A stretch of DNA of 64,000 nt from Chiloscyllium plagiosum (taxonomy: Eukaryota): assembly GCF_004010195.1 (NCBI RefSeq), contig NC_057719.1, positions 33,841,981-33,905,980 of the forward strand. Direction: 5' to 3'. Shown here piece by piece: positions 1 to 59,481 of this stretch. How positions within the stretch are numbered: position 1 is the first letter of the stretch; every line of letters begins with the position of its first letter. The notes beneath the pieces are model-generated. The model saw only the letters and a list, made by a program, of their open reading frames with translations, had not been told where the DNA came from and did not search any database. Made by a program: the position numbers and the translations under genes.

Positions 1-1520
1 CAAATCCTCCAACCCTGGCAACATCCTTGTAAATCTTTTCTGAACCCTTTCAAGTTTCACAACATCTTTCCGATAAGAAGGAGACCAGAATTGCATACAA
101 TATTCCAAAAGTGGCCCAACCAATATCCTGTACAGCTGCAACATGACCTCCCGACTCCTATACTCAATACTCTGACCAATAAAGGAAAGCATACCAAACA
201 CTTTCTTCACTATCCTATCTACCTGTGACTCCACTTTCCATGTCCTTTTCCACTGTAAACACTGACTCAAAATGCTCTTTTAGCATCCCCCCCACCTCCT
301 CTTTTTCCACACAAAGGCCACCTTGCTGATCTTTGAGGGGCCCTATTCTCTACCCTGCTGTCCTTAATGTATTTGTAAAAACCATAAAATTTGCTTTCCC
401 AAAATGCAGCACTTCACATTTATCTAAATTAGACTCCATCTGCCATTTCTCAGCCCATTGGCCCATCTGATCAAGATCCCATAGTAATCTGAAGTAACCC
501 TCTTCGCTGTCCACTACACCTCCAATTTTGGTGTCATCTCCAAACTTACTAACTATACCTCTTATGCTCACATCCAAATCAACTATATAAATGATGAAAA
601 ATAGTGGACCCAGCACCGATCCTTTTGGCACACTATTAGTCACAGGCCTCCAGTCTGAAAAACAACTCTCCACCACCACCCTTTGTCTTTTGCCTTTGAG
701 CCAGTTCTGTATCCAAATGGCTAGTTCTCCCTGTATTTCATGAGATCTAATCTTGCGAAGCAGTCTCCCATGGGGAACCTTGTTGAATGCCTTACTGAAG
801 TCCATATAGATAACGTCCACCGCTCTGCCCTCATCAATCCTCTTTGTTACTTCTTCAAAAAACACAATCAAGTTTGCGAGATATGATTTCCCATGCACAA
901 AGCCATGTTGACTATTCCCAATCAGTCCTTGCTTTCCAAATACATGTACATCCAGTCCCTCAGGCTTCCCTCCAACAACTTGCCCACCACCGACATCAGC
1001 CTCTCTGATCTATAGTTCCCTGGCTTGTCCTTACCACCTTTCTTAAACAGTGGCCATGTTAGTCAACCTCCAGTCTTCCAGCAACTCACCTGTGACTAAT
1101 GATGATACAAATATCTCAGCAAGGGCCCCAGCAATCACTTCCTTAGCTTCTCACAGAGTTTTTGAATACATCTGATCAGGTCATGGGGATTTATCCATTT
1201 AATGTGTTTCAAGACATCCAGCACTTCCTCCTCTGTAATGTGGACATTTTTCAAGATATCACCATCTATTTCCCTACATTCTATGCCTTCCATGTCCTTT
1301 TCCACTGTAAACACTGACGCAAAATGCTCTTTTAGTATCCCCCCCACCTCCTCTTGTTCCACACAAAGGGCACCTTGCTGATTTTTGAGGGGCCCTATTC
1401 TCTACCCTGCTGTCCTTAATGTAATTGTAAAAACCATCTGAATTCTCCTTAACTCTATTTGCCAAAGCTATCTCATGTCCCCTTTTTGCCCTCCTGATTT
1501 CCTTCTTAAGTATACTCCTA
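1..1520 (-). mobile_element. CR1-clade LINE (HER1-like) ORF2 reverse-transcriptase fragment, decayed, runs off the window start
   Basis: ORF 350..898 has RT motifs VDVIYMDFSKAFNKVPH, VPKGSVLGPL and KFGDDTK; ORFs 1135..1528 have CR1 ORF2 motifs (HFASVFT, KKEIRRAKR); frameshifted. Confidence 0.95.
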
Positions 1521-3560: not shown

Positions 3561-4343
3561 TGTTAAGGAGCACAAGGCATTCGGAGATAAAAGGCCTAGC
3601 ATCTATCTTGTGTTGATGGGTATATGTGTGAGGTGAGACTGCAGTTTAAAATGACTCAGCTATTGCAGTGTAATTATATAGTCCATAGCTCTTCACTATC
3701 ACAAATACTGAGGTTTTGTTTTATCCAGATAAAGGAGCTGCTTATATGTCGACGAGATAATTAAATAGCAGAAATAAACATACTAATTTAATTGGCTAGT
3801 TGGTGGAATTATATGTTGTGAGGCTAACATCTGGGAAAACCATTAGTTATCCTTGTGCTACAGGTGAGAAGAAAGGAAATCTCTCTCTCTCTCTCTCTCT
3901 TTCACTCTCTTTGCTGAAATCAGCCAACATTAAAAGGAAACAGGACAAAAGATTTTCCACTAACTTGTTTTGTCAAGAATCTCAAAATCAACTCAATGAA
4001 CAATGTCAGTTCCATTGATAATACTCAATGTAAAGGCTGTAATGTCTCATTGTCTACTCTTTTCAGAAATCAAAGATCTATATGTTAATTTTAACTTTTC
4101 TGGGGACTCAACTCTTAATCTGTGTGGATGTGTGTTGCATTATTAGTTCTTCTTGTGTTTAGTAACCAATGAACTCATTCTTCTGTTAACTCAACAGCTT
4201 GATTACATTAGCTCCTTAAAACATTTATTTATTTTGTCTGAATGAAAAAAATCCTTTCAAAATGAATCTTGTTGTGGCAAATGAAGGGGCCATTTGAATA
4301 AAGAAGGGAGACTGTTCATCTCTCCTTACTCAGATGTTTAACA
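3561..4343 (+). mobile_element. Putative LTR (ERV/Gypsy-like) followed by a degenerate PBS-like sequence
   Basis: Begins TGTTAA and ends TTAACA (inverted 6-mer termini); internal (CT)n and AATAAA near the 3' end; followed by aaTGGGTATTCTGTCTGGAA, loosely resembling a tRNA-Pro PBS (TGGGGGCTCGTCCGGGAT). Confidence 0.45.
3880..3910. repeat. (CT)n microsatellite
   Basis: tctctctctctctctctctctttcactctct. Confidence 0.9.
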
Positions 4344-6120
4344 AATGGGTATTCTGTCTGGAACGGCAAGAAATTGGGGAACATCACCGAAAGACTGATC
4401 ATCACAAAACCCTAATATGCAGGTAGTTCCTCCAGCAACCTCAACTCTAACTGTTTCCGATCTCGACGCCATGCCCCATTCTGCTCCTCCTCACTCTGCT
4501 GTCCCACTTTGTTGACCATTGCTAGTCTCTCCACAGCCTTTTGCTCTTACTGTTATTAACAGCCACACTACTCCTTACCCAAGATCCAACCAAAAGCAGA
4601 CCATGGTACCAGCCATCTTAATTTTGAGTGTCAATCTTAGTCCTGCTTTAGGCTCTCATTCCAATTATTCAAATAACTCCCTTCCCAATGGAAGATAATG
4701 TGAGTCCTCGTCATCAATATATATCTATATCTATCTATCTGACTTAAGTAATTCAATAATTTGCTGTTGATTCCTTTTGGTTTTTGGTTCAATGAACAAT
4801 TTCCAGAAGCTCAGCAAACTTGTGCGTGTCATGTTAATCAGTATAAAAATTTTCAATTTTCCAAATTTCAATTTCATATTCACTGACCCACTTTTCTGGA
4901 GGAGTTTACAATCTTGTATTAAAATACTCCGTAGTTAGATTCAGAAGTCAGTGCATTGGATCAAACATGCTGTTTATTATTAAAACTCCTCTTCCTTGAA
5001 TGAGAATATTGGAAATGCATTCTAAGGGGAAGAAAGGAAGTTCTGAAAACAAATGAATTAATTATTGGAAGTAAACACAATGGAGACAGAAATAAAATTT
5101 AGCTGAATCACTGAACATCCAAATTATTTCAAGGTTTACATAAGGCCTCAATGCGAGTGCTGAACTGAATAAAATGTTTATTTTGGTTATGTATTTCTGA
5201 ATTTTAATGAGTATAGAGTCATACTGACATACAAAATTGTCCTTACACATACAGATCATCTATTGATCAATCTGTTATGCAATAATCAGACAAAATGAAA
5301 TCCTCAGGACAGACAAAAAGTATGTGAGTAGAAATTATATTAGGCATTGATGTCAGCATTTATATCAATGAAGGCAAATGTATTTTTAGCTGATCTGCTG
5401 AAATGTAATTTATTGGCTTTTCTGATATTATTGCATGAATAAATAAATTAATTTAGAGCTACAAAATGTTGAAAACTGTCACCACTAAAGGCTGTGATGA
5501 CAATGCCCTCATAGTTGAATTGTTTAACTATCCACTTTATTATAATACTGCAATTAAAAGAGGTCAAAGTTATTTCAAAGCCTTTGATTTAAATAAGATA
5601 TGATTTTGATTATTTTTCAATTTTCAAGCCAATTTTCCATCTTGTTTGGCTATTCAGCCATCAGACTTGGTTGGCTGCATGAAAGAACAAAAAAAATTAA
5701 TCTATCAGGCATCCTCCGATACTGCCTTAAAGACTGCAGTGTGGAAATGTAAAATGAATTTACTGCTGGAAGGAAATAAGAATCCTCAGCTTACTGGCTT
5801 TGAAAAATATTATCTGGAGGGCTTTCTCTCACCTTGGGCACCTAAGCTCCGACCTTATATTCACCACCCAGACCGGGGCCTTCAACATAGCATTGGAAAA
5901 CCTGAGAAGCCAGATTAAAAGTCTTGCAAATTCTTGCAATGTTGAGTGTTGCTTTTCTGTACTTGGTCAGGTACAACTAGTGACTGCCAATAGGTTATGC
6001 CAGAGAAGCCTGTTTCCCAGTCTGCCCTAACAGGCTATAGTCATTGAGTAACAGAGGTGGCACTAGCTGGATGCATGACCTGTTAAAATGAGCCACCTAA
6101 ACTAATTTCATGATATCCCT

Positions 6121-6345
6121 TGTAGTGATTGTAATGAGATCAGCCCAGTAGACCTCATAGAATATGAGTTCCTTTACTGGAGCTGTTAACCTGGGTCAAT
6201 CAGGGAGCACTGGCTGTCAGATGTAAACAGGAGTGTCAGACATCTTGTTCGCTCTGAGAGAGCTGGATCAGTGTCCAGGACTCTCCAGTTGTGTCTGGAA
6301 GGGGACTGACTCTGAGCTGGCTGGTCCATAGTCAGTGTGTACTGT
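6121..6345 (+). mobile_element. LTR-like segment (5' portion) of a shark LTR-retrotransposon family
   Basis: Starts TGTAGTGATTGT; CAAT-like and TATA-like (gatgtaaa) motifs; about 6222-6287 is homologous to about 7834-7905. Confidence 0.6.
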
Positions 6346-6489
6346 TGCTTTTAGTTTCTGGGTTTTTTGGGGGGAATCTGATTCCTAAATTGGCTGAATT
6401 ATATAGCCAGTTGTTAACTGGTATTCCTCTTTATTGAGGACTGATTTCTAAACTGACTGATCTACACATTCAATGTGTTGAGTTGTTCC

Positions 6490-7570
6490 TGTGTGGGTAG
6501 GACAGGCCCTCTGTGAATGGACTAGGCCTCTGTAAAGACTGAACACCTGTGCGTGTGCTGGGAGGTGAGCAATTGCTGCGTTTGGGAGTGGACCAAACCA
6601 CTGTGAGTTAACTGCAGCTTCACAATACGCTGTGTTCCTGTGAGTGGGCCTGGTTCTCTATGGATGGGTTAGGCCTCTGTAGGAACTGAATACCTGTGCA
6701 TGTGCCATGGGATGTGTATTTGCTGCCTTCAGGAGTGGACTCTGCATACCGGAGTGGACTCTGCCTTTGATTGTGGACTCTATCTCTGACAATACATTCT
6801 GCTTACTGGAGTGGACTCTGTTCCTGGGAATGGACTCTGCAGTTTGAAGAGAACTGTTTATGGTAATGGACTCTGTGTACCAGAAAGGACTCTGGTTGTT
6901 GGTAATTGACTCTGTCTTGTTGCTTATTAGGTTTATCACATGCACTGTCTTGTGTGTCTCTGGGTCTGGTAGGCCTCACTGTGAGCTGAGAGGCTCATAG
7001 GTCATCCTGAAAGCTGTCACCCTGAGAGCTGGAGGGTGGCTAGGCCAGCCTGTGAACCGGAGGTGGGTAGGCCACCCTGATGCCAGTTGCCCCAAGAGCC
7101 GGAAGGTGGGTAGACTATTCTGAGCGCTGTCGTCCCAAGAAGGGGTAATCAGGACACGCTATCCTAGAGGTGGTCAGAAGGTGTGTCAGAGTGGCCGAGA
7201 ACCAGAAGGTGCATAGGGGCAGGCCGAGATCCAGAAGGCTTGTACACTGCCCTGTGCTCCCTCATCCCAGGGAAGGGGACGGGCTGTCATAGAGGTGGCC
7301 GGAAGGTGTGTCAGTGCAGCCCGCAGGCCAGATGGTACATCAGGGTGGGCGAGAGCCAGATGGTATGCAGGGGCAGACCGAGAGCTGGAAGGCAGGTAGG
7401 CCATCCTCAGTGCTGTCATCCCGAGCAAGTATCGGGGAGGGCTGGCCTAGAGGTAACCGGAAGCTGTGTCAGGGCGAACTGAGAGCCAGAAAGGACATGG
7501 GACGGAGCGAGAGCTGGAAAGGGTGTAGGGGCGGGCTGCCTTTGTGTGGCCGGAAGGTGGGAGGGGTGGT
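6490..7570. repeat. Degenerate GC-rich tandem-repeat region (about 19-bp GGACTCTG-core units, then GAGAGCCGGAAGG-like units)
   Basis: Repeated ggagtggactctg at 6732-6915; taggcctctgt..actgaa.acctgtgc.tgtgc duplicated at about 6523 and 6670; repeated gag(a/t)g(c/g)c(c/t)(g/a)gaagg units 6985-7560. Confidence 0.75.
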
Positions 7571-7833
7571 AGTTTGCTGGGTTGCCAGGGGTGTCTATGA
7601 TATATGCGCTGTTTTATTGCTCGGTTTTTCGGACTGTCTGTATATGATTGCGTTTACTGTTTCCTTCTTGATTAATGTCAGGTGGGATTTGAGGTTCATC
7701 CCCATTTTCCTGAGAGCTGGTTGTATGGTGGGGTTTGCTGCTCCTTTCCCCCGTGAATTACTGTTTCTTTTATACAGCTGTTCATGTTAATTGTTTGTTT
7801 GTAATTTGTACTGGTTAATAAAACATAAAAACA

Positions 7834-7960
7834 AATAAACAAGAGTATCAGACATTCTGTTGACTCTGACAGCTCGCTCTCAGATAACTGGATCAAGAAC
7901 TTTCCACGTGTCAGAAAAGGGTGACTTGGTGATGGGATACCAGCCTCAGTGGGGTTATCA
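7834..7960 (+). mobile_element. LTR-like segment (3' portion) of the same family as 6121
   Basis: Shares aaaca.gagt.tcagacat...gtt..ctctga with 6225-6260; continues aaagggtgacttggtgatgggatacc...gttatCA. Confidence 0.55.
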
Positions 7961-8102
7961 ATGAATGATCTCCCATAAGCACCGTCTGTTTTTTTTAAGT
8001 GTGAACAAATTCTAGGCCATGCTCTTAAAATTGAGTGTATATAATGACATTGGTGTAGAGAAAACATCATAAAGCAGCAACAAGATGGGATAGAACCTGC
8101 AG

Positions 8103-8468
8103 GGAGAAAGTGAGGACTGCAGATGCTGGAGGTCAGAGCTGAAAATGTGTTGCTGAAAATGCGCAGCAAGCCAGGCAGCATCCAAGGAGCAGGAGAATCG
8201 ACGTTTCGGGCATGAGCCCTTCTTCAGGAATGAGGAAAGTGTGAACTGGAGAAATCTGTGTTCATCCCTTGTGGTTGGAGGGTTCCTAGGCGGAAGATGA
8301 GGCGCTCTTCCTCCAGCTGTCGTGTTGCTATGGTCTGGCGATGGGGGAGTCCAAGGACCTGCATGTCCTTGGTGGAGTGGGAGGGGGAGTTGAAGTGTTG
8401 AGCCATGGGGTGGTTGGGTTGGTTGGTCCGGGTGTCCCAGAGGTGTTCTCTGAAACGTTCCGCAAGTA
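8103..8468 (-). mobile_element. Penelope-like element, 5'-truncated: GIY-YIG endonuclease C-terminal fragment plus pseudo-LTR
   Basis: Peptide LAERFREHL...HPMAQHFNSPSH...RQLEEERLIFRLGTLQPQGMN; exact 15-bp flanking repeat GGATAGAACCTGCAG at 8088-8102 and 8469-8483. Confidence 0.9.
8198..8229 (-). ncRNA. Minimal type I hammerhead-ribozyme-like motif (family A, intact core)
   Basis: Minus strand reads UC-CUGAAGA-A-GGGC-UCAU-GCCC-GAAA-CG-UC-GA: core boxes, 4-bp stem II, GUC triplet; stem I only 2 bp. Confidence 0.6.
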
Positions 8469-9502
8469 GGATAGAACCTGCAGCCTTTATATCAGGAAAT
8501 ACATGAAAAATCAATACACTGTGGACAGATGCCATCGTGTTATGCTGTGCTATGTATTGTTTCCACAGGCAGAGGTAGTGACTCACAAAAGCCTTTATGA
8601 AAGAACTGAGATTTTCGAAACACTCAATTGTGATGCCAGGCTAATTTCATATGTGTCACAGTCAATTCAAAATGAACACGGAATCCAAATTAGGGTTAAT
8701 TCATTCCACCCCTAGCTGTAACATCTAGAAATGAATAAGAGTTTAAACGAAAACTGAAGCCTGATATAAATGTGACTTACACAGTATGATCCAAAGTCCT
8801 CAAGGTCCTATTTAGATCAGTAATATCAAACATTGATGAGAGGGAACAGGTAGGTACTTATTTTGTGAATTCATTTTGCCATACACTTTTTGCGAGTACT
8901 TTATAGGGAACATCTTATCTCCTATGAAATTAAATTTAAAATTCACAGTTGCTGACATTCACTCTAGGTGTGCTCCTCTGAATATATTAGAGACCTGAAG
9001 CTTTTATCCATGGGCTAAACAGCAAGCTCAATAATTATGCCCTACATTTTCTGCAAAGGGATTAGTTTTTTCATGGAAATGAGCAGTGTATCACAGATAG
9101 TGAGCTAAGGTTTGATATGCCAAGCTTGAGGCGGGAGTGCAGCATTTATGCAGCTGTATTTTTTATATATTAATAACAAATAGTTCAGTAAGTCACAAGA
9201 TAAATTTTAGAAGCAATTTTTTTTACTGAGAAACTGCTTAATACAGCAATATTGTTCTTTTTTTCAACCCAATACCCAGGGGCAACAGAGATGAAATAAC
9301 AGAAATTGGATTCTTTCCACAGTTCAAACACATATCGGCAATATTTCCTTCACAGCTTCCACTTCTTTTTGTTATGTTGCAACAGCGTCACAAATATCCT
9401 CTTTCTACATCCAGCGTGATTGTCCGTAACACCAAAATGGCTGATCCACGTACACAGATGCACTGTAATGTCAGCTAGCTCTGTGTGTGTGTGTACAAAG
9501 GG

Positions 9503-11690: not shown

Positions 11691-12659
11691 AAACTAAATT
11701 TTCAATAAAATACTGTGAGTCCGTTTGCTTCTGCTATCTATTCTGTGGCCCAAATTTCTATTTCACTTTACTCCATCTGGTTTCAGTTATTCCACATCTT
11801 CTGTACCTTTTCTGATACAAACATTCAATTACTTTTCCTTTGTGTTGTCTTCTTGCTGTCAGGTGGAGCAGCTTCCACCTGACAGGTATTTGACTGACAA
11901 GTAAAGAAATTAGGAGTCTTGACTTTGAGCCTCTATACTGATCAAGGTGATCCTGGCAGATCTGTGACCAACTCTATTTACCCTGCACTGCATGCATTGT
12001 AAACAGTGGTAGTGGCATGCTACAATTAGAACTAAATGATCCTGTAGTCAATAGATTAGATCAAACCTCTGCTGTCCTGCCATATCAAGTCTTGAATAGT
12101 GATGGACAATTCGGAGGAAGGAAGATTCCTAAATGTCCCCAACCTCAATGATGGCAGAGTTCAAAACATTAGTGCAAAAGATAAGCCTGAATGCTTATAA
12201 TCATCTTAAGGTAGAAGTGTAAAATGGATGTAAAACTTCTTCAGATTTTTCACCTTTGCAAAAGACTGTTTTCAGCTACTTTGACTCATTTCATGTGATT
12301 TCTAACAAGAACTGAGTGCACTGTAAATAGTAAAAGCTCTGGATCATGAGCACATTCTAATCTGCAGTGCTGGCAGCCTACACTCCCGAACTAACTGTAC
12401 CTCATGCTGCCCCCTCCACTGAAAGGCAGCAGCTGTCAGCCATTCATTCTACAGCTGCACTGGAGTAGCACTGTGCAGCAAAACCCGCAGAGCCAAAGGT
12501 AAGGACTAAGGAAACAAACAAGAGTGAGTAGTTCTGTTTTATATGTATAATTGGATAATGTCTTGGATTAAGTTATTAAGGAGTGTTCACTTTTGAAATG
12601 TCCTTTATTTCAAGCTTTTCACACGATTTCAGAGCAAATTATTGCAAATGCAGAAAGTA

Positions 12660-12790
12660 TTACTGAAAACAAAAAATGCTGGAGATCACTTCAGGTCAAG
12701 CAGCATCCTGGAGAGAGCAAGTTAACATTTCGAATCTAGTTAACTTAGTCAAAGCTGACATGAATTGTGAAGGGTCAGCATTTATGCGAG
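12660..12790 (-). mobile_element. Old Penelope-like pseudo-LTR fragment
   Basis: aaatgctggagatca...ggtcaagcagcatc...gttaacatttcgaa, a diverged parallel of the 8103 and 38247 elements. Confidence 0.55.
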
Positions 12791-13199: not shown

Positions 13200-14800
13200 G
13201 CAGCAGAATTATATCATACCTTACTACATTAAATCCCATCTGCCACACTTTTGCCCATTTAACCTTCTGATATCCCCTTGCAGATTCTTCATGTCCTTAT
13301 CTCTACATACCCTATCACCTATTTTGATACCATCAACAAATTTGATTACATTACGCTCTGCACTCCTCCAAGTCATCAACATAGATACTAAATAATGAAG
13401 GCCCATGGCTGACCCTTGTGGCACTCCATTAGTTACATCTTTCGAAACTGAAAAAGACCCATTAAGCCTAACTTTCTGTTTTTTCTTTATGAACAAGCAC
13501 TCAATCCTTACTAAGGTTTTACCCACATACCATAAGCTCCTATCTTTTCAATAACCTTTTGTACAGCATCTTATCAAATGTCTTTTGGAAATCCAAATAC
13601 TTTACCTCTACTAGTTCCCCTTTAAACAACTCTTCTTGTTATATCTTCAAAGAACTTTGGCAAATTTGTTAAATCTGCGATCCCTTTCAAAAAACCATAC
13701 TAACTCTGTTTGATTGTAATAAGCCACTCTAAATGTGATGTTTTCCATTTTTCATAATGGGCTCTAACTTTCCTAATGAGCTGTTTGGCTAATTTGTCTA
13801 TAGTTTCCTGCATTACGTGAGCTGTTTTCCGATCTGCTAGATATCTCACAGTATCCAGTGAGTTCTGGAATATTTTGACCAATACCACTACTCTCTCTGC
13901 AGCCACTTCCTTTAAAACCATTGGTTTCAGGCCATTGTGTCCTGAGTGACTTGTATCACGTTAGTCCCATTAGTTGATCAAATACTTTGTTCCTTGTGAT
14001 AGAAACTATCACAAGATCTTTCCTCCAACTAGCACATTACTTATCTGTAATTTTGTGATTTGATAGTGTCCTCCACATGAATACCAATACAAAATGTTGG
14101 ATTAAATTACCTGACGTTTCACTGTCCTCCATCATTAATTTCCCAGATCCATCTTCCAAAGTCCTACACTCACTTGAGCTACTCTATTTCCTTTTACGTA
14201 CCCCTGCCGTTTGTTTTCGTGTTTCTTGCCAATTTATGTTCAGAATCAATTGTATCCTTCTTTATTAGGTTTTTTGTCATCTCCTGCTTGGTCCTAAAAT
14301 ATGCCTAGTCCTTTGACCTCTCATGAGTTTTTGCTACCTTGTATTCCTTTGACTTTGATTGAAAACACTACCTTGGCTATCTATGATTTGGAGATGCCGG
14401 TGTTGGACTAGGATGTACATAGTTAAAAAATCACACAACACCAGGTTATAGTCCAACAGATTTAATTGGAAGCACTAGCTTTCACAGCACTGCTCCTTCA
14501 TCAGGTGGTTGTGGAGTCCAATTAAACCTGTTGAACTATAAACTGGTGATGTGTGATTTCTAATTTTGGCTAACTATGAGTAGATCATGCTTTTCGATGA
14601 GTTCTGAACAGCTTCTCGATGTTTGTTGTCTCTGCCAAACCCCCACGTAATGCTTCAGGTCAAACCTTCAAAACTAGGAGCGAGTATTGTGCTTCTAAGC
14701 TTTTAGAATTTAGATAACTTATTCCAATGTTCTCTACTCTCTTTTGAATGAAAGAAATCTCATCTACTTCACTATCAGCACACTACCTCCACTTTCTCTG
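13200..14800 (-). mobile_element. CR1-clade LINE ORF2 fragment, decayed, interrupted by a Penelope insert
   Basis: ORF 13224..13526 has VTNGVPQGSAMG and KFVDGIKIG; ORF 13700..13921 has LKEVAAE...IFQNSLD. Confidence 0.85.
14387..14565. mobile_element. Penelope-derived palindromic insert (family B) with a hammerhead-like core on the minus strand at 14473-14507
   Basis: Inverted arms around aatcacacaacaccaggttatagtccaacag; TSD ttggcta(t/a)ctatga at 14373-14386 and 14566-14579; minus strand CAC-CUGAUGA-A-GGAGC-AGU-GCUGU-GAAA-GC-UA-GUG. Confidence 0.75.
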
Positions 14801-18624: not shown

Positions 18625-20461
18625 TTAGTGAGAAAAATCCAGTCTGTTTTGGGCTTGAACAAGTGCACTGAAATCTGGTTGAATATCTGAGGTGGATATG
18701 TGAACGACAGCTGAGAGGTGATCGTCGGTGATAGAGGATCTGTATTTGGATTTGTTGAACTTCATCACTGAGAATATCTGTTTGCATATATAGGTAGATC
18801 CAAAGAGGACTAGAATCTTCTAAGCATGCCTCCTTATGTGTGGAAAGTTCTCCTCTTTGAGGGAAGAGTAAAAATCAAGCAGTGAGACTGACCTAAAGTA
18901 TTCTGCCAGGAGTGTGTCAGACTGCAGGTCAATGAGTTCAAGCTGAACATCACTAGGTGCATTCTCCACATTGCATGTAAATGGGGAAAAAATCATGTGC
19001 ATTTCATTCTCAACCTTTTTAAAGTCTTGAAATCGCCTTGAAAATTCACCATGCAGTGTTTCTAACATAGATGAGTATCTGTGGAGGTGATCAGCTGAAG
19101 GTGTGGCTTCCTTCAGTGTTGGCAAGTGGGTGAGAATGTTGTCCTCCATTTGGCTTGAGAGAAACTGCAACTTTCTCAGAAAAGCCTTCACCAAGTTGTA
19201 CATTTCATGGGCAAAAAGGTCCTTGCACTGCAATTTCATATTTAGTTCATTCATAAGTGCAGACACATCAACATCAAAACTAAGGTCTGCAATCTAGTCT
19301 GCATCTGAAAGCTGTGGAATGCCATTCCCTTTCTTCACACAGAAATCTTGAATCTCTTCTCTCAGGTCCTATACACTTTTCAGCATTTTGCCCAGGCTGA
19401 GCCACCTGACAGCTGTGTGGTAGCCTACGTCACGATATTCAGTCTCATTTTCCTCCAAAAGTGCAACAAACTGCCTGTGATTCAAAGCTCTTGCCCTGAT
19501 GAAGTTAACTATTTTAGTTACAACATCAAACACATGGTTAATTTTTAACACTGACTTACACAACACTTCCTGATGTATAATACAATGCAAAAATACCAAT
19601 TTCTGTTCAGGGTCAATTTCTGTCACTTTATCCTGCATTCTCTTTAAGAGTCCAACATTTTTTCCCATTAGATTTGGACAACCATCCGTTGTCACACCCA
19701 CCAGCTTGTCCCATTTTAGTCCCAACCTGTCCAAACATGCATTTACCTCCATGAACAAACCATTACCAGTTGTTGTTCCTTTCATTGACTGCATGGCTGC
19801 CAGCTCCTCCGTGATTTTAAAGTCCATAGTTACCCCACGGACGAAGATGAGTAGCTGGGCTGTGTCACGTATGTCGCAGCTCTCATCCAAAGCCAAGGAA
19901 AAAAAGTCAAAGTTGACCGCTCTGTGCTGCAGTTGAAGCTCCAGATTTCTCGCGATGTCCCCATTCCTTCTCGTTACAGTGCGTCGGGAGAGGGGCACAT
20001 TCTCAAATGCCTCCTTTTTCTCCAGGCATATTAGTTCTGCTGAGTCCAACAAGCATGCCTTAATAAACTTTCCATCAGAAAACGGTTTACTGTTTCTGGC
20101 GATTTTGTGGGATATGACATGTCTTGTCTTGTCGTGGGCGGCACGGTGGCACAGTGGTTAGCACTGCTGCCTCACAGCGCCAGAGACCCGGGTTCAATTC
20201 CCGCCTCAGGCGACTGACTGTGTGGAGTTTTCACGTTCTCCCCGTGTCTGTGTGGGTTTCCTCCGGGTGCTCCGGTTTCCTCCCACAGTCCAAAGATGTG
20301 CAGGTCAGGTGAATTGGCCATGCTAAATTGCCCGGAATGTTAGATAAGGGGTAAATGTAGGGGTATGGGTGGGTTGCGCTTCGGCAGGTCGGTGTGGACT
20401 TGTTGGGCCGAAGGGCCTGTTTCCACACTGTAAGTAATCTAATCTAAAAAAAAACTGACAT
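18625..20461 (-). pseudogene. hAT transposase pseudogene
   Basis: Motifs KPFSDGKFIK, FSLALDESCD, TTDGCPNLMG, HCIIHQE, VRWLS, FGSTYICKQ (catalytic E to K); frameshift near 19370, stops near 19296 and 18820; probable ATG at 20461 cut off from the rest by a SINE; stop at 18625. Confidence 0.9.
20136..20445 (+). mobile_element. HE1-type SINE, full length, inside the hAT element
   Basis: tRNA-like head gggcggcacggtggcacagtggttagc, box B ggttcaattcc, V-domain-like core, (AATCT)n tail. Confidence 0.95.
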
Positions 20462-23265: not shown

Positions 23266-23541
23266 AAATTAACAATGGGTTCAATAGTATGACAAACACT
23301 TCTGACCCGTATTTGAATCACTATTAAATATACAATATTTCTGAATGCTATGTATGCATTTGATCAGAAACGTCATGGTGTAATAAGTTAGCTGTTCGTC
23401 TTTCACTCCTGGTTCGAATCCAACCTCAGTCGATTAGATGTTAGCTCTACAAATGAAAAATGAGTTAATACATTTTCAAATTTAGCTCCTCACAAGCATT
23501 TCTTTGCACACCCGATCTCTAATGGTCAATGCCTCTTGGAT

Positions 23542-23790
23542 AGAGTTGATAAAGTGTGGTGCTGAGAAAGGTACAACATGTCAGGCAACATCCGAGAAGC
23601 AAGAGAGTCGACGTTTCAGGTATAACTCTTCTTCAGGTTATTCCCGAAACATTGATTCTCTTGCTCCTCAGATGCTGCCTGACCTGCTGAGTTTTTTTTC
23701 AGCACATTGCTTTATTAACTCTTGAAAATGTATTAACTAATTTCTCATCATGACTCTGACTCTCCAGCATCTGCAGTCCTCACTTTCTCC
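23542..23790. mobile_element. Penelope-derived palindromic insert (family A), decayed
   Basis: Inverted arms 23542-23722; tail ctccagcatctgcagtcctcactttctcc as in the 8103 element. Confidence 0.8.
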
Positions 23791-30352: not shown

Positions 30353-30697
30353 AATCGGCAAAACTAAAGAACTGATCATTGACTTCAGAAAGAAAAGAGG
30401 AGAACATGCCCCCAATTACATCAACGGGGAAGAGATTGAGAGAGTGGAGAGCATCAAGTTCCTCGGAGTGACGATAACCAACAATCTCTCCACCCTGCAG
30501 GCACTCTGCCTCTGTTCCTGATGAAGGGCTTTTGCCCAAAACGTCGATTTTCCTGCTCCTCGGATTCTGCCTGAACTGCTGTGCTTTTCCAGTACCACTC
30601 TAATCTAGAATCTGGTTTCTAGCATTTGCAGTCATTGTTTTTACCTATACAACCATCCTCAACTTGCCATGTAGATGTGATGGTCAAAAAGGCACAT
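30353..30697 (+). mobile_element. Rex1/Babar LINE RT fragment interrupted by a Penelope insert
   Basis: KTKELIIDFRKKRGEHAPNYINGEEIERVESIKFLGVTITNNLS, resuming as HVDVMVKKA after about 30650. Confidence 0.85.
30492..30647 (+). mobile_element. Penelope pseudo-LTR insert (family A) with a mutated hammerhead-like core at 30518-30547
   Basis: CTGATGAAGGGCTTTTGCCCAAAACGTCGA (GAAA to AAAA) followed by the family A 3' sequence. Confidence 0.8.
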
Positions 30698-35949: not shown

Positions 35950-36900
35950 CATACTAACATATGAATTAGCAACAGGCAAGATTAGGGTGTTCAACCCTTT
36001 GAGCCTTTTCTGCCATGCAATAAGATTATGACTGATCAAATGTAACCTCAAATCTGAATTTCTCAAATCTGCAAATTTACCTCAGATAACTTTCCACACC
36101 TTTGTTGCTTGATAAGAAACTATCTACTTCTGCTGTGCAAAATGTTCAACATATCCACCACATTTTCCAAACAAGATATTCAAAAGTTCAGGACCCTCGA
36201 AGAGACAATATTTCATCTATACCTATTTTAAGTGGACAATCACTGATTTTTAAACAGTGATCCTTAGTTTCAGATTCTCCCCTATCGAGGGATTTCACTT
36301 GAGTCACCTCTTATTCCTCTAAACCCCAGTAGATATGAACTGAGAATGTGGTGCTGGATAGCCACAGCAGGTCAGGCAGCATCCGAGGAGCAGGAGAATC
36401 AACGTTTCAGGCCAGGGCCCTTCACGTTGGGCCCGAAACATCAATTCTCCTGCTCCTCGCTTGCTGCATAGCCTGCTGTGCTTTTCTAGCAACATACTCT
36501 CGACTCTTATCTCTAACATGTGCAAACTTCACTTTTTCCCAGTAGATATGAACCTGGCCTGTCCAACCTTTCCTCATAAGATAACATTTTCATTTCAGGC
36601 CTTAGTCCAGAAAACTTTCTTTGGAACACATGTACTTTATTCTTTAAATAAGGTTATTGATGCTGCGCTCAGCACTTCAGATGTGGTCTCATCAGTGTCC
36701 AGTACAACTGAAGCATAACCTCCCTACTTTTGTAGTCAATTTCCTCCCTCAAAAAATTATACTCTGTTAGATTTTTTAATCACATGCTATACCTTGTATA
36801 CTAATCTTCTGTAATTCATGTACACAACACTAAGCTCTATTTGCTTTTTAGAGTTGTGAATCTCTCAAAATTTAGACAATATGTGTCTTTGCTATTCTGC
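35950..36900 (-). mobile_element. CR1-clade LINE 3' portion, decayed, interrupted by a Penelope insert
   Basis: Similar to 25670-27100. Confidence 0.7.
36341..36537. mobile_element. Penelope-derived palindromic insert (family A)
   Basis: Inverted arms; exact 16-bp TSD CCCAGTAGATATGAAC at 36325-36340 and 36538-36553. Confidence 0.88.
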
Positions 36901-37169: not shown

Positions 37170-37227
37170 CCTAACCCTAACCCAAACCCTAACCCTAACC
37201 CTAATCCTAACCCTAACTCTGACCCTA
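37170..37227 (-). repeat. Interstitial telomeric sequence, about 9.5 (TTAGGG)n units
   Basis: cctaac cctaac ccaaac cctaac cctaac cctaat cctaac cctaac tctgac ccta. Confidence 0.92.
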
Positions 37228-37645: not shown

Positions 37646-38246
37646 CAAGCTGCCATGGAAACTGTGAAGCTCTCATGATATTTAATCTCATTTTCTATCA
37701 ATTTAAAAATAAACTGCTGGCAATGCAATAAAATCAATGTTTACTTTTGACTCCATCTGTTAACAATTGGGATGGCTGTCACCATTTCATTTATGATACC
37801 TGATTGATTTCACAATCTATCATTTGTACAATGGGGCACCTGTCACTTCAATTTAATTGACATCTCCAAAAGCTTGTAAAGTCAGTGGATTATGTCAATG
37901 AATACAAATGTTCATTTTAATAAGGTATCAAGTAACTTAAGGAAGTTAAACACAACAAATGGGTTTTTATCAATGAGAGAGTGTTGTTTTTAAACAGTAA
38001 AATCACCAATCGACACTTAAGTTCTTTAACTTAATTCATCACATGAGCTGACGTGTGTCATTATGGATATTCAGCGCATTAGCATAAAGCATGTTTGAGC
38101 AAAGATAGGAGGGCAATTTTGGAATTGGATGTTGGGACTATGTTGATATAGAGTCTATAAAAAGACCCTGGTGAGTAAAGAGGCAATGTAGACATGGAGG
38201 GGATGAGTGGCCTCCGAAACAAAATAGCCCAATGCACTTTCTCGTG

Positions 38247-38346
38247 AACAAAAACAGAAATTGTTGGAAAATCTCAGCATGTCTGGCAGTATCTGTGGAA
38301 AGAAAGCTGAGTTAACATATTGGGTCCAGTGAGCCTTCCTCAGAAC
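38247..38346 (-). mobile_element. Penelope pseudo-LTR fragment (family C) with a decayed hammerhead-like core at 38311-38346
   Basis: Minus strand GUU-CUGAGGA-A-GGCUC-ACUG-GACCC-AAUA-UG-UU-AAC; related copy at about 53240-53365. Confidence 0.65.
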
Positions 38347-38554: not shown

Positions 38555-40725
38555 TGAATGGAATCCTCCGCTATCAACATCTTGCAGGTATCTATTGACA
38601 AAAAACTGAACTGAATTAGTCATAATCGTAATTGCAGTGGCTACAAGGGTAAGACAGAGGCTAGAGATGCTGCAGCATGTAACTCAACTTATGACTCCCC
38701 AGGGCCTTTCTATCATCTACAAGGCACAAGTCAGAACTGTGACATACTATTTCCCACTTTCTGGATGAGAGCAGTTCCAATAACACTCAATAAGCTTGAC
38801 ACTATCCGTAATTGATTGGCATCCACAAATATTTACACCCTCCATAATGGAAGCTGCGTAGCAGTAATGTGTACCATCTACAAAATGTACAAATCTATGC
38901 AGAAATTCATCAGGGATCTTTAGAAAGCACCTTTCAAGCCGATGACCACTTCCATCTTGAAGGACAAGGCCAATGGTTACATTGGATTACCACCACTCCC
39001 AAGTTCTCTTCAGGAATAAAAGAATGACGAGGGTAGGAATAGGACCAGTCAAGGATAGTAGTGGGAAGTTGCATGTGGGGGCTGAAGAGATTGGGGAGAC
39101 ACTGAATGAATACTTTTCGTCAGTATTCACTCAGGAACAGAACATTGTTGCCAATGTGAATACTGAGTCACAATTAAGTAGAATGAATGGCTTTGAGGTA
39201 TGTAGGGAAGAGGTGTTGGAAATTCTGGAAAGGGTGAAAATAGATAAGTCCCCTGGGCCTGATGGCATTTATCCTGGAGTACAGGAGGTTAAGGCGGTGA
39301 CCTTATACTTTTATAAAATCATGAGGCATTGATAAGGTAAATAGCAAAGGTATTTTCCCTCGGATAGGGGAGTTCAAAACTAGATGGTATAGTTTTAAGG
39401 TGAGGGAAAAGATTTTAAAGGCACTCGAGGGGCACCTTTTTCACGTAGAGAATGGTCCACATGTAGAATGAGCTGCCAGAGGAAATAGTAAAGGCATGCA
39501 CAGTTACAACATTTAAAAGACATTTGGACAGGTAAATGGGTAGGCAAAACTAAAGGGATATGAGCCAAGCACAGGCAAACAGACTTGCTCAGTTTAGGAC
39601 AGCTGGTTGGCTTGGATAATGTGGGCTGAAGAGTCTGAATGTGCTCTGTGACTATGACATTTTAACATTGTTGTTTTAGGCAGTATATAGAAGACTAATA
39701 TGCACTGAAGTGAAGAGAGTTCAAACCATTGGAATCACAGCAAACAATGCTCACCAATAATTCTGAAAGCTAAATCCTTCAACCATCAATCCCCAGGACA
39801 TCCAAAAGGCAAGCAAAAATTCCTCATTTACATTGCGTATTGTGCAGTTTACCTTCCCTAAAGCTGTTTAAATAGGAACAATCTTGGCCAACTGCTGTGA
39901 ACAACAAATGTAAACAATTTGCATCGGTCAGGTGGACAAGAAAGTGGTAAACGGAATCCAACCCGGAGAAGCATAAGATGCATTTGGGAAGACCCAACAA
40001 GTCAAAGGCATACACAATAATTGAGAGGATCCAGAGGATAGAGAGAGGAAGTGAGGGACTTGGGTTGTTAAGACAAATTGAACATATTCCGTGATTAACA
40101 GGTATTGAATGTAAAAGAGCAGGAAAGTTAGTCAAACTGTTAACAGAGTAGGTTTGGGGTTGTTTTCATTGGAGAAAAGAAGGTTTAGGGGTGACTTGAT
40201 AGAGCCGAACAAGATGGTTCGGGGTTTAGATAGGGTTGACCGTGAGAACCTTTTTCCACATATGGAGTCAGCTATTACGAGGGGGCATAGCTTTAAATTA
40301 AGGGGTGGTAGGTATAGGACAGATGTTAGGGATAGGTTCTTTACTCAGCGAGTCGTGAGTTCATGGAATGCCCTGCCAGTAGCAGTGGTGGACTCTCCCT
40401 CTTTATGGGCATTTAAGCGGGCATTGGATAGGCATATGGAGGATAGTGGGCTAGTGTAGGTTAGGTGGGCTTGGATTGGCGCAACATCGAGGGCCAAAGG
40501 GCCTGTACTGCACTGTATTCTTCTATGTTCTATGTTCTAAGCTATCTGTCATCCTGACTTGGAAAAAAGTTGCCATTCCTTCAGTGTCTCTGGGGCAAAA
40601 TCCTGGAACTCACTCCCTAGTTTTCAAAGCAACTCACCATCACCTTCTCAGGAGAAATTAGGGATGGGCAACAAATGCTGGCCTAACCAGCGATGCCCAC
40701 ATGCCATGAATGAGTAAGAAAAAAT
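38555..40725 (+). mobile_element. CR1/L2-group LINE 3' portion split at about 39010/40538 by a cluster of CR1 fragments
   Basis: 38555-39009 and 40538-40725 match 2390-3058; the insert contains LNEYFSSVFT...DKSPGPDGIYP, LFSLEKRRFRGDLIE and a (CTATGTT)n tail. Confidence 0.85.
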
Positions 40726-45001: not shown

Positions 45002-45159
45002 TTTGGATATGCCGGTGTTGGATTGGGATGTACAAAGTTAAAAATCACACAACACCAGTTCATAGTCTAACAGGTTTGATTGGAAGCATGAGCTTTTGGA
45101 GGGCTGCTCCTTCATCAGGTGGTTGGACTATAACCTGGTGTTGTGTGATTTTTAACTTT
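45002..45159. mobile_element. Penelope-derived palindromic insert (family B)
   Basis: Same sequence as the 14387 insert; imperfect 12-bp TSD g(t/c)gat(a/g)ggataa at 44990 and 45160; minus-strand core with GAAA to AAAA. Confidence 0.8.
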
Positions 45160-46317
45160 GCGATGGGATAAGATAAAATCAAAGGTGGAAAAGAGCTCTT
45201 TGGAGATAACCTTTCATCATAGCATGCAGGCGTTTTTCTTGTTTATTCACTCATGGGGTATGGGAGTCATTGGCTGGGCCAGCATTTAATGCTTATCCCT
45301 AGCTGGCCTTGAGAAGGTGTTTGTGAGCTCCTTTTTTGAACTGTTGCAGTCCGTAGGCTGGAGATACATCAACCAATCCCTCGAAAATGCCTCATGAGAG
45401 ATCAAATTAACAAGGCAACAGTTCAACAACGAGACTTAAAAAGGCCAATGCTCACTTCCAAGTCTTTGTGTAAAAGATGGGGAACTGATCGCTGTATGCT
45501 CCCTCTCAAGTAAGCAGGTGTTTCAGGAGCCTGGTTAAAAATTAAAGATTCCAAGAGCTGTGACCAAGATCAAGGAAAGCATCATGAAGATGAATTCTAG
45601 GCCTGTCACTTGTGCTGGACCTTAAATTTATGTTGGAGACCCAATTGTATCAGATGCAGACCCTGAAAGATATTATTGCAAATTATCTGCTTTTGTAAAG
45701 GGCACTTTCATATTTCTTCCTGTAAGATATCAACCAACTCCCTTCTGGAGAAGTGACTGACAGCCTATGTGCCTGCTTTGGTACTGAGCACCACAAGCAC
45801 CCTCTACTGGCACAGATGCCTGCCATTGGGTTGGAATGAAGAAGCCTCACTTCGTCTGAGGAAGGTCAAGAGCATTCTGACCTTGCAGGTCTATCCGAGC
45901 ATTTATATTGGGATGTTACTGGCGCAGACTTTCAATCTTATGGGAACCTGTGTGAAAATAGCTTCAGTGTTTGGCAGCATAAAATCACTGCACTTCAAAA
46001 GGAATTAATTGTACAGGAAAACATTCAATATGTTTAACCAATCTGCTAAAATGTGATATAAATGCAAATGATATTTACTTTTAGATATCCCAAAGCAGGA
46101 TGGAAAGGAAGTGCTGCCTTTGAAAATCATTTTGAACAGAAATAATTAATGCTGAATTCACATTGTCCAATTCTGGGTTCAATTTAGATTTGCCATCAGT
46201 CCATCTCTAAAAGTTATTATGCTTATTGTAAGTGTGTGACCTACAGAAATTTTACATAGCCCCCAGCCTCTAAAACATTCTTATAATAATGTTGAAGTTA
46301 GACTATTATTTCTACTA

Positions 46318-46480
46318 GGAGGAAGTAAAGACTGCAGATGCTGGAGATCAGAGCCAAGAGTGGTGCTGGAAAAGCACAGCAGGAAGGGCTTGCTGATGAA
46401 GGGCTTATGCCTGAAACGTCGATTATCCTGCTCCTTGGATGCTGACTGACCTGCTGTGCTTTTCCAGCACCACACTCTTG
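46318..46480. mobile_element. Penelope-derived insert (family A) with a plus-strand hammerhead-like core at 46393-46422
   Basis: CTGATGA-A-GGGC-TTAT-GCCT-GAAA-CG-TC-GA; inverted arms gtggtgctggaaaagcacagcagg / cctgctgtgcttttccagcaccac; flanking tttctacta repeat. Confidence 0.85.
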
Positions 46481-47243
46481 ATTACTGTTTCTACTAACAT
46501 TATAGGCTAAAGTTTTAGAGTATTGAATTGAGACTCTGAAAAGATTTTCCATGTAAAAGCACTCCAAAAGGAATGAATGTTCATTACAACAGCCTAATTC
46601 ATATCATAATAACTTTCTCAAAGTTAAAAGCTGTCTACCTCACTCAATCACCTCTTCATCCACCTCAGATATTTTCAACTTGGCTTCTATCTCAAAAAGT
46701 AAGTTTTGCAAATGATAACGCTTGTGGGCAGATCAATACATTATATAATCTTCATTATACTGGTTTTGTTTTATATTAAAGTTTATCCAATGAAGAGAAA
46801 TATTGGGCAAAATGTTTCAAATACATCTATGAAAAGTAATGTAAATAAAGCTGTAACTGTGATATGTCACTGAGCCAATGTGCTGATTCATCATTCTACA
46901 AGTTATTGTAGAAAGATTCGGTCTCCATATTAATTTCAGTATGCACAATTTCATCTACATATTTCATCATTTTCTTGTTGATTTGATTTATTTTGTTTTC
47001 TCTTTCATGTTTTGTACCTTTCTCTCTGGTAAACCACCAATAATTTCTTAATATGGAAAAATTAGACAGTAAAGGAAATGGTAGCAAGAAATGAGAAACC
47101 TGCATTACTTTTAATACTGCCCTTAATTAATGGCTGTCCCATGATTGAGAATGAAAAGTGAACATTGAAAGCAGGATTAGCACAAAGCACCATTGGACAG
47201 GTAGTCAGAGCTGGAGAAATTAATTAACAACAACAAATATCAG

Positions 47244-47394
47244 ATGGTGGAGATTAGAGTCAAGATGAGAGTGGTGCTGGAAATGCACAGCAGGTCAGGC
47301 TGCATCCGAGAAGCAGGAAAATCGACATTTCGGACAGGAGCCCTCCTCGGATGCTGTCTGACCTGCTGGGCATTTCTAGCACCGCTCTGATCTT
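47244..47394. mobile_element. Penelope-derived palindromic insert (family A)
   Basis: Exact 15-bp TSD AACAACAAATATCAG at 47229-47243 and 47395-47409. Confidence 0.85.
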
Positions 47395-49145: not shown

Positions 49146-49889
49146 TTGATGTGTACTGAAATAAATACACACGAGCCCAAAAATGCAGAACAATATTCTT
49201 TTCATCCCTCATTCTAAAGTGAAATATGCTTAATCAATTCACTACAAAATCTGAAATTCATAGTCACCAGGATCGAGAATTGATAACAAGGAAACCTTTA
49301 AATTGTTACATCTGAGGCACAAGAGAATTTGGGAAAGGACATGTAGGCAGTTTCAGGATTCTGGGTCACTAGCAGCAAATAAAGGACGAACAAAGACAGC
49401 TGGGGGAACTGGTGAAGGTTAGATGGTCGTGGAATAGCATTTATTCAGGAAAGGGAAGTGATTACGAAGGCATAAACCTGGAAAGGGAGAAGAACAGAAA
49501 GTGAGAGAATGCCAGAAAAAGGACAATACTTAGAATTGGTCAGTTATGAACAGGCAGTGTGTTTCTGGGTTGGGATGAGATCAGGAAGGAAATTTAGATT
49601 AGAATTGAGATAGTAACCAGCACATTGGGGCAGTGATCAGGAGAAAGATCCAAACAGGTGACCATAGTGGTGATTAGAACAGGGATCTAACAAGGGATCA
49701 AGACCTTGATCAGGACAAGAGATTGAGGAATTAGTCAGGGAGGAGATTAAAGTAATTGCTCGGACAGGAATCAAAGTAGTAATTGCAACAGGAATTGGGC
49801 ATGATAAGAATACAGGTACAAAGCAGCATTTGGACTGGGGCTCAAAGCAGTAATCAAGAGGAAGGTTCAGCCGAAACCTGCAGTATCTC

Positions 49890-50785
49890 ATACAGGGAGA
49901 ACTACCATTTGGATACAGAACTGGCTCAAAGGTAGAAGACAGAGGGTGGTGGTGGAGGGTTGTTTTTCAGACTGGAGGCCTGTGACCAGTGGAGTGCTGC
50001 ATTTTGGGAAAGCAAATCTTAGCAGGACTTATACACTTAATGGTGAGGTCTTAGGGAACGTTGCTGAACAAAGAGGCTTTGGAGTGCTGGTTCATAGCTC
50101 CTTGAAAGTGGAGTCGCAGGTAGCTAGGATAGTGACGAAGGCACATGGTATGCTTTCCTTTATTGGTCAGAGTATTGAGTACAGGAGTTGGGAGGTCATG
50201 TTGCAGCTGTACAGGATATTGGCTAGGCCACTGTTGGAATATTGTGTGCAATTCTGGTCTCCTTCCTATCAGAAAGATGTTGTGAAACTTGAAAGGGTTC
50301 AGAAAAGATTTACAAGGATGTTTCCAGGGTTGGAGGATTTGAGCTATAGGGAGAGGCTGAATAGGCCGGGGCTGTTTTCCCTGGAGTGTCGGAGGCTGAG
50401 GGGTGACCTTATAGAGGTTTACAAAATTATGAGGGGCATGGATGGGGTAAATAGGTAAAGTCTTTTCCCTGGGGTGGGGGAGTCCAGAACTAGTGGGCAT
50501 AGGTTTAGGGTGAGATGGGAAAGATATAAAAGAGACCTAAGGGGCAACATTTTCACGCAGAGGGTGATACATATATGGAATAAGCTACCAGAGAAAGTGA
50601 TGGAGGCTGGTACAATTGCAACATTTAAAAGGCATTTGGATGGGTATATGAATAGGAAAGGTTTGGAGGGATATGGGCTGGGTGCTGGCAGGTGGGACTA
50701 GATTGGGTTGGGATATCTGGTCGGCATGGACAGGTTGGACCGAAGGGTCTGTTTCCATGCTGTACATCTCTATGACTCTATGATT
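49890..50785 (+). mobile_element. CR1 (HER1-like) LINE 3' portion with an internal deletion
   Basis: ORF 49946..50458 has RPLLEYCVQFWSP...LFSLECRRLRGDLIEVYKIM; the RT core between PVTSGV and LHFGKAN is deleted; (CTATGACT) tail. Confidence 0.95.
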
Positions 50786-53234: not shown

Positions 53235-53600
53235 AAAATACCAAAGAATTCCGATGCTGGAAATCAGAAACTAAAACAGAAATTGTGGAAAAACTCAACA
53301 GGTCTGGCAGCATCTGTGCAGAGAAAGCAAAGTTAATGTTTTGAGCCCAGCAGCCCTCAGTAGACCCCAGTGTGAGCAACAAATGCAGTAGACTAGATTG
53401 AGTGAAGTGCAGGTAAGTCATTGGAAGGTGTGTCTGGAGCCTTGGAAGATAAGGAAGGAGGTATTACATCTTCTGTGATTGCAAGGGAAAGTACCATGGG
53501 GTTAGAGGGAGATATTGGAAATGGAGGAGGAGTGGACAAAGGTGTCCCAGAGGGAACAGTCCCTTTGGAAGGCTACAGTGAGATGCCTCCAGCAGACACA
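53235..53600 (-). mobile_element. Penelope-like fragment (family C), decayed
   Basis: aaaacagaaattgtggaaaaactcaacaggtctggcagcatctgtg matches 38247-38300; followed by decayed coding sequence. Confidence 0.6.
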
Positions 53601-59387: not shown

Positions 59388-59481
59388 ATGTCAAAGAGTG
59401 TGGTGCTGGAAACGCACAGCTGGTTAGGCAGCATTTGAGGAGCAGGAGAATCGACATTTCGGACATAAGCCCTTCATTAGG
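59388..59481 (-). mobile_element. Short Penelope pseudo-LTR insert (family A)
   Basis: 10-bp flanking repeat AATAAAGACC at 59378-59387 and 59482-59491; decayed core. Confidence 0.8.

Follow-up and report, generated by a model that had tools for sequence, protein, structure and literature searches.

A 366-bp Penelope-like insert, 5′-truncated and internally deleted, lies on the minus strand at positions 8103-8468 of the window, the 64-kb stretch of DNA that was analyzed as a whole. The insert is bounded by a 15-bp target-site duplication (TSD) with 0 mismatches (left copy 8088-8102, right copy 8469-8483, plus strand), and depth in the DNA runs was confined to 8102-8470, with loose ends at 8103 and 8470. 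Read along the minus strand, it carries the C-terminal half of a Penelope-like element's (PLE's) GIY-YIG endonuclease domain (8244-8468), a hammerhead motif (8198-8229), and a 3′ 'tail' of ~33 nt (8103-8135) that is present on one arm alone in each of the family-A hairpins described below. Another high-copy repeat fragment sits beside the insert at 7886-7957, where depth was raised in both DNA runs.

The coding fragment at 8244-8468(-) is 87% and 75% identical to P0001 and P0002, respectively, two proteins labelled Chiloscyllium punctatum at source that contain reverse transcriptase (RT) and GIY-YIG domains. In both of these close relatives the RT is followed by a C-terminal GIY-YIG domain within a single ORF, while the window has a fragment only. 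The Pfam domain scores of P0001 and P0002 are below the curated cut-offs, RVT_1 passes in P0156, and longer relatives of up to 1,058 amino acids have the same domain set. The window fragment starts after the YIG motif, so that neither the GIY nor the YIG motif is inside it, and for this reason a Pfam search with it returned nothing significant. A CX4CxxC linker is present in P0002, and a CX2-5CxxC linker precedes the endonuclease in 43 of the 89 relatives of at least 300 amino acids when a strict pattern is used. This linker is described as a mark of the Neptune and Nematis clades of PLEs in the available part of the source (10.1101/2021.04.23.441226). Because no full-length element of the family was seen, the clade and the position of the motif in a pseudo-LTR are taken from the relatives, which suggest an element of Neptune/Nematis type, the two clades being treated together here. 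Related loci were found neither in viral contigs, by protein search or by tail pattern, nor in metagenome contigs by tail pattern.

The junction between the ORF end and the hammerhead module, at 8243/8244, is a deletion specific to this copy. In DNA run X9, 63 contigs depart from the reference before 8244 and continue alike (agreement 0.83), into sequence consistent with the C-terminal extension of P0002. The hammerhead and the endonuclease fragment are in contact only because the 8103-8468 copy is internally deleted, and it is also because of this deletion that the frame of the fragment meets its stop codon inside the hammerhead, at the UGA of CUGA (8226-8224). The motif had been described as lying directly 3′ of a GIY-YIG fragment; this is true for the 8103-8468 copy, and for that copy alone. 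A natural fusion of ORF and hammerhead at 8244 was rejected, the junction being the copy-specific deletion.

Contigs span the insert edges by 23-27 bases in two organisms (left edge in run X1, both edges in X9), which falls short of the 31-base crossing threshold, and the X9 unique flank differs from the reference at 11 of 459 bases. No empty-site joint was present among the 15 joints listed, with 115 further. Since the edges are spanned in both organisms and none of the listed joints is an empty site, the insert is probably older than the split of the X1 and X9 organisms.

The minimal hammerhead motif

The minus strand at 8198-8229 had been read as a hammerhead core in an earlier note made from the sequence, and the letters are as stated there. 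The motif is a minimal type I hammerhead (min-HHR), assigned here to family A, with the order 2-bp stem I, CUGAAGA, an extra A, a 4-bp stem II with a 4-nt loop, GAAA, CG, and GUC. C3 is at 8227 and the extra A at 8220; stem II is formed by 8219-8216 and 8211-8208, GAAA occupies 8207-8204, and the stem III CG is at 8203-8202, where it makes the palindrome ACGU. The cut is predicted between 8200 and 8199. This is the sole family-A copy of the window in which the core, stem II, the palindromic stem III, and the 2-bp stem I are all intact.

The conserved boxes CUGANGA, GAAA, and UH are present in type I order. With its 2-bp stem I the motif does not have the canonical Rfam type I traits (a 6-bp helix I, contacts between loop 1 and loop 2, and an Rfam score), and an Rfam scan that gave 11 matches up to E 10 included no hammerhead family. 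Minimal hammerheads of this kind were described in the pseudo-LTRs of metazoan PLEs by Cervera and De la Pena 2014 (PMC4209133), where, in the parts available, the consensus has an extra nucleotide, a G10.1-C11.1 pair, and a palindromic 15.2-16.2. The motifs of that study share with those of the window the type I topology, the boxes, the extra nucleotide, G10.1-C11.1, the palindrome, and a short helix I, while helix II is 4-5 bp here and 7-8 bp in Schistosoma (PMC4209133). In family A, the equivalent of the extra A at 8220, between positions 9 and 10.1, was present in 9/9 arms covering the position, as was G10.1 (9/9), and C11.1 was found in 8/11, the remainder being CpG changes. The palindrome at 15.2-16.2, which stands without a monomeric helix III, is ACGU in family A and AGCU in a second family, B. 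The extra A and the 2-bp stem I had been noted as caveats, and both are there; they are, however, published features of PLE hammerheads and not defects, a 2-bp helix I being described for D. virilis (PMC4209133, as far as its available parts go). The naming of the motif as a minimal type I hammerhead from a PLE was borne out. The motif at 8198-8229(-) is real, correctly named, and an ordinary member of the known hammerhead class of PLE ends.

It could be that the motif is a non-catalytic look-alike, such as a protein-binding hairpin, or a product of chance. In line with this idea are the lack of an Rfam hammerhead match and the predicted folds. The minimum-energy fold of the monomer retains stem II alone, although folding of this type takes no account of the hammerhead core, and the predicted homodimer favors a 6-nt palindrome across the cut site (-21.9 kcal/mol) over the stem III register (-18.9 kcal/mol). 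Against it, a strict min-HHR descriptor gave two matches in the window, at 8200-8227 and at the family-B motif with C3 at 14504, both with all descriptor fields, compared with a mean of 0.003 and a maximum of 1 in 300 dinucleotide-block shuffles, and a chance occurrence was rejected on these figures. In addition, stems I, II, and III are not the same in families A and B while pairing and palindrome are kept (judged by eye, with few copies), so that the boxes have been retained in two families whose stems changed in compensating fashion. In the homologous motif of the anole, moreover, core mutants abolish cleavage and a double mutant partly rescues it, according to the portion of the study available (PMC11167929). 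The probability that the motif is a look-alike or a product of chance is therefore close to negligible.

Hammerhead families of the window

In a profile search, the 64-kb window yielded 13 arms of family A, distributed over 8 loci, as well as older relatives. The loci comprise 5 head-to-head hairpins and 3 single arms. Core sequence is present on 11 of the 13 arms, in agreement with the 'roughly ten' whole or partial cores counted in the earlier note, and core and stems together are intact on 1 of these 11. A TSD of 9-16 bp was identified at 6 of the 8 loci, the one at 23.6 kb being doubtful and none being found at 30.5 kb; at the hairpins, a clear TSD is present in 4 of 5. Since the TSDs bound the loci, a hairpin generally stems from a single insertion event. 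One arm of every hairpin (5 of 5) is longer on its 3′ side, reaching 80-97 nt past the cut site compared with 49-65 nt for the other.

The best-preserved family-A hairpin, at 62589-62809 (both strands), has 97-nt arms that are 94% complementary and a 13-bp TSD with 1 mismatch. Its cores are at 62716(-), with G16.2A and a broken palindrome, and at 62720(+), with G5U. The hairpin at 46318-46487 (both strands; 9-11-bp TSD) has intact core boxes on its plus arm, at 46393(+), where the first stem I pair is lost, whereas the cores are truncated at 36341-36537 (both strands; both cores, 16-bp TSD) and at 47244-47394 (both strands; 15-bp TSD). In the hairpin at 23542-23790 (both strands), where the TSD is doubtful, both cores are damaged, and in the core at 23636(-) stem II is broken and stem I reduced to 1 bp. 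The tail of this hairpin includes, at 23722-23748, a 27-nt inverted copy of the flank at 23453-23479 that is 93% complementary, which suggests a template jump onto target DNA during insertion.

Besides the 8103-8468 copy, single family-A arms are located at 30490-30640(+) and 59388-59481(-). The former, whose left edge is approximate, has other upstream sequence and G12A in its core at 30518(+). The latter has a 13-bp TSD with 1 mismatch that overlaps the front edge of the motif, and its core at 59480(-) has G5A and C15.2U. The five further sites that had been listed as related cores, at 23636(-), 30518(+), 46393(+), 59480(-), and 62716(-)/62720(+), are thus indeed related to the 8198-8229 motif, and every one of them is damaged.

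Beyond what had been noted earlier, the window contains three loci of family B, two decayed modules of a family C, and one older module. Family B has the AGCU palindrome, a CUA triplet, and a 3-bp stem I. Two of its three loci are hairpins joined at short microhomologies: 14387-14565 (both strands; 14-bp TSD with 1 mismatch), with a min-HHR whose C3 is at 14504(-) and a G.G mismatch in stem II, and 45005-45160 (both strands), with a min-HHR whose C3 is at 45118(-) and which carries G12A. The third, at 61646-61733(+), is an arm truncated 3′ of the hammerhead with a 12-14-bp TSD; family-B TSDs were thus found at 2 of 3 loci, with one weak case. The family-C modules, at 38232-38343(-) and 53244-53576(-), have decayed min-HHRs with C3 at 38343 and 53360, respectively, and a TSD was not found at either locus. 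In the module at 53244-53576, the front edge of the motif is joined to PLE linker/GIY coding sequence (tblastn with P0002 residues 288-366, E 5e-9). In the older related module, at 12641-12732(-), the GAAA half alone is recognizable, and this could represent a fourth family. The parts of PMC4209133 at hand likewise describe PLE min-HHRs as occurring in several families within a genome, for the most part as single copies that come from truncated PLEs, with some opposite-strand pairs.

Other sequences were noted in the window as well. An LINE reverse transcriptase remnant is present at 350-1009(-) (RVT_1, E 2.5e-18), and the stretches at ~1442-2694, 38961-40459, and 49808-50458 were judged by eye to be further such remnants. 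Two long frames at 18820-20157(-), for which Pfam gave a weak DUF4371 match only, are presumably a decayed hAT-type transposase. An interstitial array at 37170-37227 is telomere-like, with 9.7 copies of a 6-mer that we take to be the vertebrate telomere repeat in a rotated register. No host exon was revealed when 5 unexplained ORFs of the window were scanned with Pfam.

The density of family A in the 64-kb window is 125 loci per Mb. This looks far above the ~4,000-9,000 motifs per genome given for coelacanth and Xenopus (PMC4209133), although the counting criteria differ. If the window density is typical, TSD-bounded loci on the order of 10^5 can be inferred genome-wide; 92,190 and 88,949 contig records from the two DNA runs matched a 1,051-base stretch, figures that are not a copy number. 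The earlier note had proposed a very large genomic population of potentially self-cleaving motifs. The motifs are indeed very abundant, but a self-cleaving potential is weakly supported at best, with 1 of 11 family-A cores intact.

Decay within the motif has affected mainly CpG positions, where 12 of 66 are changed, compared with 8 of 169 at non-CpG positions (p 0.003). Non-CpG positions of the core vary less than the next 60 nt, the tail (3/90 vs 68/687, p 0.049), which goes against pure neutrality and could mean some constraint on the copies. As the tail differs between subfamilies, the lower core variation most simply reflects selection on the source elements.

Retrozymes and RNA cleavage

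The units of the window had been regarded as mostly non-autonomous and retrozyme-like, and this part of the earlier interpretation was not supported. Non-LTR retrozymes would be transcribed, cut by dimeric hammerheads, circularized, and re-inserted by PLE enzymes. As described for animals by Cervera and De la Pena 2020 (PMC7229834) and Li et al. 2026 (10.64898/2026.07.22.740005), in the parts available, they resemble the present units in being short, non-coding, and PLE-derived and in carrying a type I hammerhead. Retrozymes derive from PLE pseudo-LTRs and have been counted in one chondrichthyan genome, to judge from the accessible part of that source, and most units of the window are without coding sequence. 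Retrozymes are, however, defined by tandem repeats (PMC7229834; 10.64898/2026.07.22.740005), with canonical motifs and circular RNAs (PMC7229834), and no locus in the window is tandem. The module forms no tandem array there, and none of the 8 family-A loci has a tandem repeat with at least two consecutive complete hammerheads; the loci are truncated insertions and head-to-head hairpins. Further points against such an origin are that the copies do not begin at the cut site but ~30 nt upstream, that arm lengths differ and tails are one-sided, and that two copies are joined to ORF sequence. Retrozyme arrays were therefore rejected for the window. Rare tandem joints from 8235 back to 8103 do occur family-wide (1 contig in X1, 5 contigs in X9), which would allow a small retrozyme-like fraction; as an account of the units in general, a retrozyme origin is very unlikely.

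A separate matter is whether dispersed intact copies influence the processing of host RNA by cutting host transcripts, as trans-dimers or aided by protein. The family is represented in poly(A) RNA: sample X21, one poly(A) single-cell run of which ~2 in 100 was covered, gave 2,652 reads matched at 85% likeness. The 8198-8229 motif is also still intact, even though its junctions occur in a second organism whose flank differs at 11/459 bases. The same reads, however, gave no indication of cleavage. Depth at 8214 relative to 8189 was 660/845 in one orientation and 424/551 in the other (0.78 vs 0.77, p 0.65), a difference of 0.012 with a 95% interval of -0.033 to 0.056, and there was thus no strand-specific loss at the cut site. 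Because one orientation alone can cleave, a large cleaved fraction would have shown in these depths. No place with many read starts or ends was observed in X21 either. Note that X21 is a weak test of both points, being a single sample of fragmented cDNA that derives mostly from dead copies and in which 5′-OH products may be lost. A second run of this sample, X22, yielded 0 matching reads and has no bearing on either point. On the unique flank of the insert (8498-8900), X21 gave 0 reads.

The state of the copies also argues against cutting of host RNA. Damage or truncation affects 10 of the 11 family-A cores, the intact 8198-8229 copy has no tandem partner, and in the hairpins the motif is masked. 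All five family-A hairpins pair the motif with its own antisense; the fold was computed for one, the 62.7-kb hairpin, which is predicted to form a near-continuous duplex (-64 kcal/mol over 81 nt), so that the motif is hidden. The published biochemistry is consistent with this. A single Schistosoma min-HHR did not cleave in vitro and dimers cleaved weakly (PMC4209133, parts available); cleavage by the anole motif required the protein of the element, mutation of the motif left in vitro insertion unaffected, and the cut site of the anole element was not the end point of any RNA reads (PMC11167929, in the sections at hand); and cleavage was seen for 1 of 9 dimer elements from Xenopus (10.64898/2026.07.22.740005, part available). 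Taken together, the data point away from host RNA cleavage by the window copies, which probably do not cut RNA, and an effect of dispersed copies on host RNA processing is highly improbable.

Copy ends and insertion

The best explanation of the locus is that the motif is the pseudo-LTR min-HHR of a shark-like PLE and that the window copies are decaying by-products of PLE insertion, a reading to which we give a probability of about 0.88. As expected of insertions by endonuclease-containing PLEs, the copies combine 5′ truncation, a TSD, an inverted copy, and a one-sided tail, the tail being one-sided in 5/5 hairpins. Head-to-head inverted copies, a one-sided tail of 30-40 bp, and a TSD, together with microhomology junctions and deletions, were likewise described for PLE insertions by Arkhipova et al. 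2013 (PMC3846280) and Craig et al. 2021 (10.1101/2021.04.23.441226), as far as the available parts of both papers go. Unlike the insertions described there, most of those in the window are 90-250 bp long, with no ORF between the arms and with junctions at or within the hammerhead.

Family-A copies begin ~30 nt upstream of the cut site and not at the cut site itself. At 6 of the 8 loci the longer arm starts within -4 to +8 of C3. Over the 13 arms, 9 ends fall in the 300 arm-nucleotides of the motif zone and 2 in the 509 of the tail zone (p 0.003, to be read with the provisos that the zone was chosen after the data had been seen, that paired arms are not independent, and that the shortest arms would be missed). 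Loose ends at 8230 (208 contigs) and 8231 (306) in run X1 rank with the 3′ terminus at 8103 (293), a part of those at 8230/8231 coming from subfamilies with other upstream sequence. Recurrent X1 joints connect 8230/8231 with 8197, 8188, and 8203, at a summed depth of 35-101 compared with ~12 on unique flank, and these may be short tandem duplications of the motif or inversions; the three well-supported ones, which run to 8197, were left out of the assessment. At 53360, the family-C module joins ORF-internal sequence at the same front edge of the motif. On the other side, the 3′ ends of family A lie ~97 and ~61-65 nt past the cut site.

Two readings fit the ends at the front edge: this edge may be the start of the RNA template, or the enzyme may be halted by the folded motif. 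Starting from the motif, the TSDs, the PLE origin, and the architecture and decay pattern of the copies, we infer the following course for cleavage in the active element and for priming. Two motifs in the active element would pair through the 4-nt stem III palindrome and be cut after C17, weakly and perhaps only when bound by protein, as the homologous systems suggest. Staggered nicks by the endonuclease would then account for a duplication of 9-16 bp. Reverse transcription would begin at one of two sites, ~97 and ~61-65 nt 3′ of the cut site, and would usually end near the front edge of the motif, the outcome being a short single arm or, often, two head-to-head arms, one of which bears the tail. 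Once inserted, the copies have decayed, mostly at CpG, the structure of the motif being kept in active lineages and not in the window copies; 8103-8468 is one dead insert in which the motif is still intact.

The closest system with biochemistry is Poseidon of Anolis carolinensis, PAc (Frangieh et al. 2024, PMC11167929; the comparison draws on the available part of the paper), while the window motif is known from its sequence. In PAc, too, the hammerhead lies ~85-100 nt 5′ of the element end, there are two 3′ end positions that bound a tail, and the absence of RNA reads ending at the cut site is shared as well. The distance from the PAc cut site to its 3′ ends, computed from PMC11167929 as ~85-92 nt, resembles the 97 and 61-65 nt seen here. 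Unlike PAc, the shark relatives have the Neptune/Nematis linker. In PAc the ORF starts inside the motif (PMC11167929); a search here for proteins starting in the open frame of the module found none, which is weak evidence.

With regard to the hairpins, the PAc protein introduces nicks in both strands, extends both, and has two start sites (PMC11167929, part available), and two-ended priming in the window copies would fit this behavior. As a rival to two-ended priming, hairpins may instead arise by self-priming on the antisense template, a route put forward in the consulted portion of PMC3846280. Our proposal, which is tentative and which we would put at somewhat below an even chance, is that the front edge of the hammerhead and not its cut site sets the copy ends, either since the RNA starts a few bases before C3 or since the folded motif stops the reverse transcriptase, and that a protein dimer primes from each of the nicked strands, using the two start sites of the tail, so that one event could mass-produce stubs of ~100-130 nt and perfect hairpins.

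As a ribozyme finding, the motif extends a class known since 2014 to a shark-like host and alters little. Sharks are absent from the text parts and two supplementary files of PMC4209133 that were searched, file 1 lying outside the search, and a literature search returned no title on shark PLE hammerheads or on 5′-end clustering at the motif, with bioRxiv supplements, one PMC4209133 supplement, and most subscription papers outside its reach. The ends of the stubs are of wider use. They could show at which places PLE reverse transcription begins and terminates and decide between the models for head-to-head repeats, and such mapping bears on what the PLE hammerhead is for. If the front-edge proposal is true, the genome would be a very large fossil record of PLE RNA starts, priming sites, and template jumps that is readable without experiments, and also a large source of long double-stranded RNA. 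The near-perfect 97-bp hairpin at 62589-62809 would give long double-stranded RNA if transcribed, and the matches to Rfam miRNA families in the window, all below gathering scores, are hairpin inserts.
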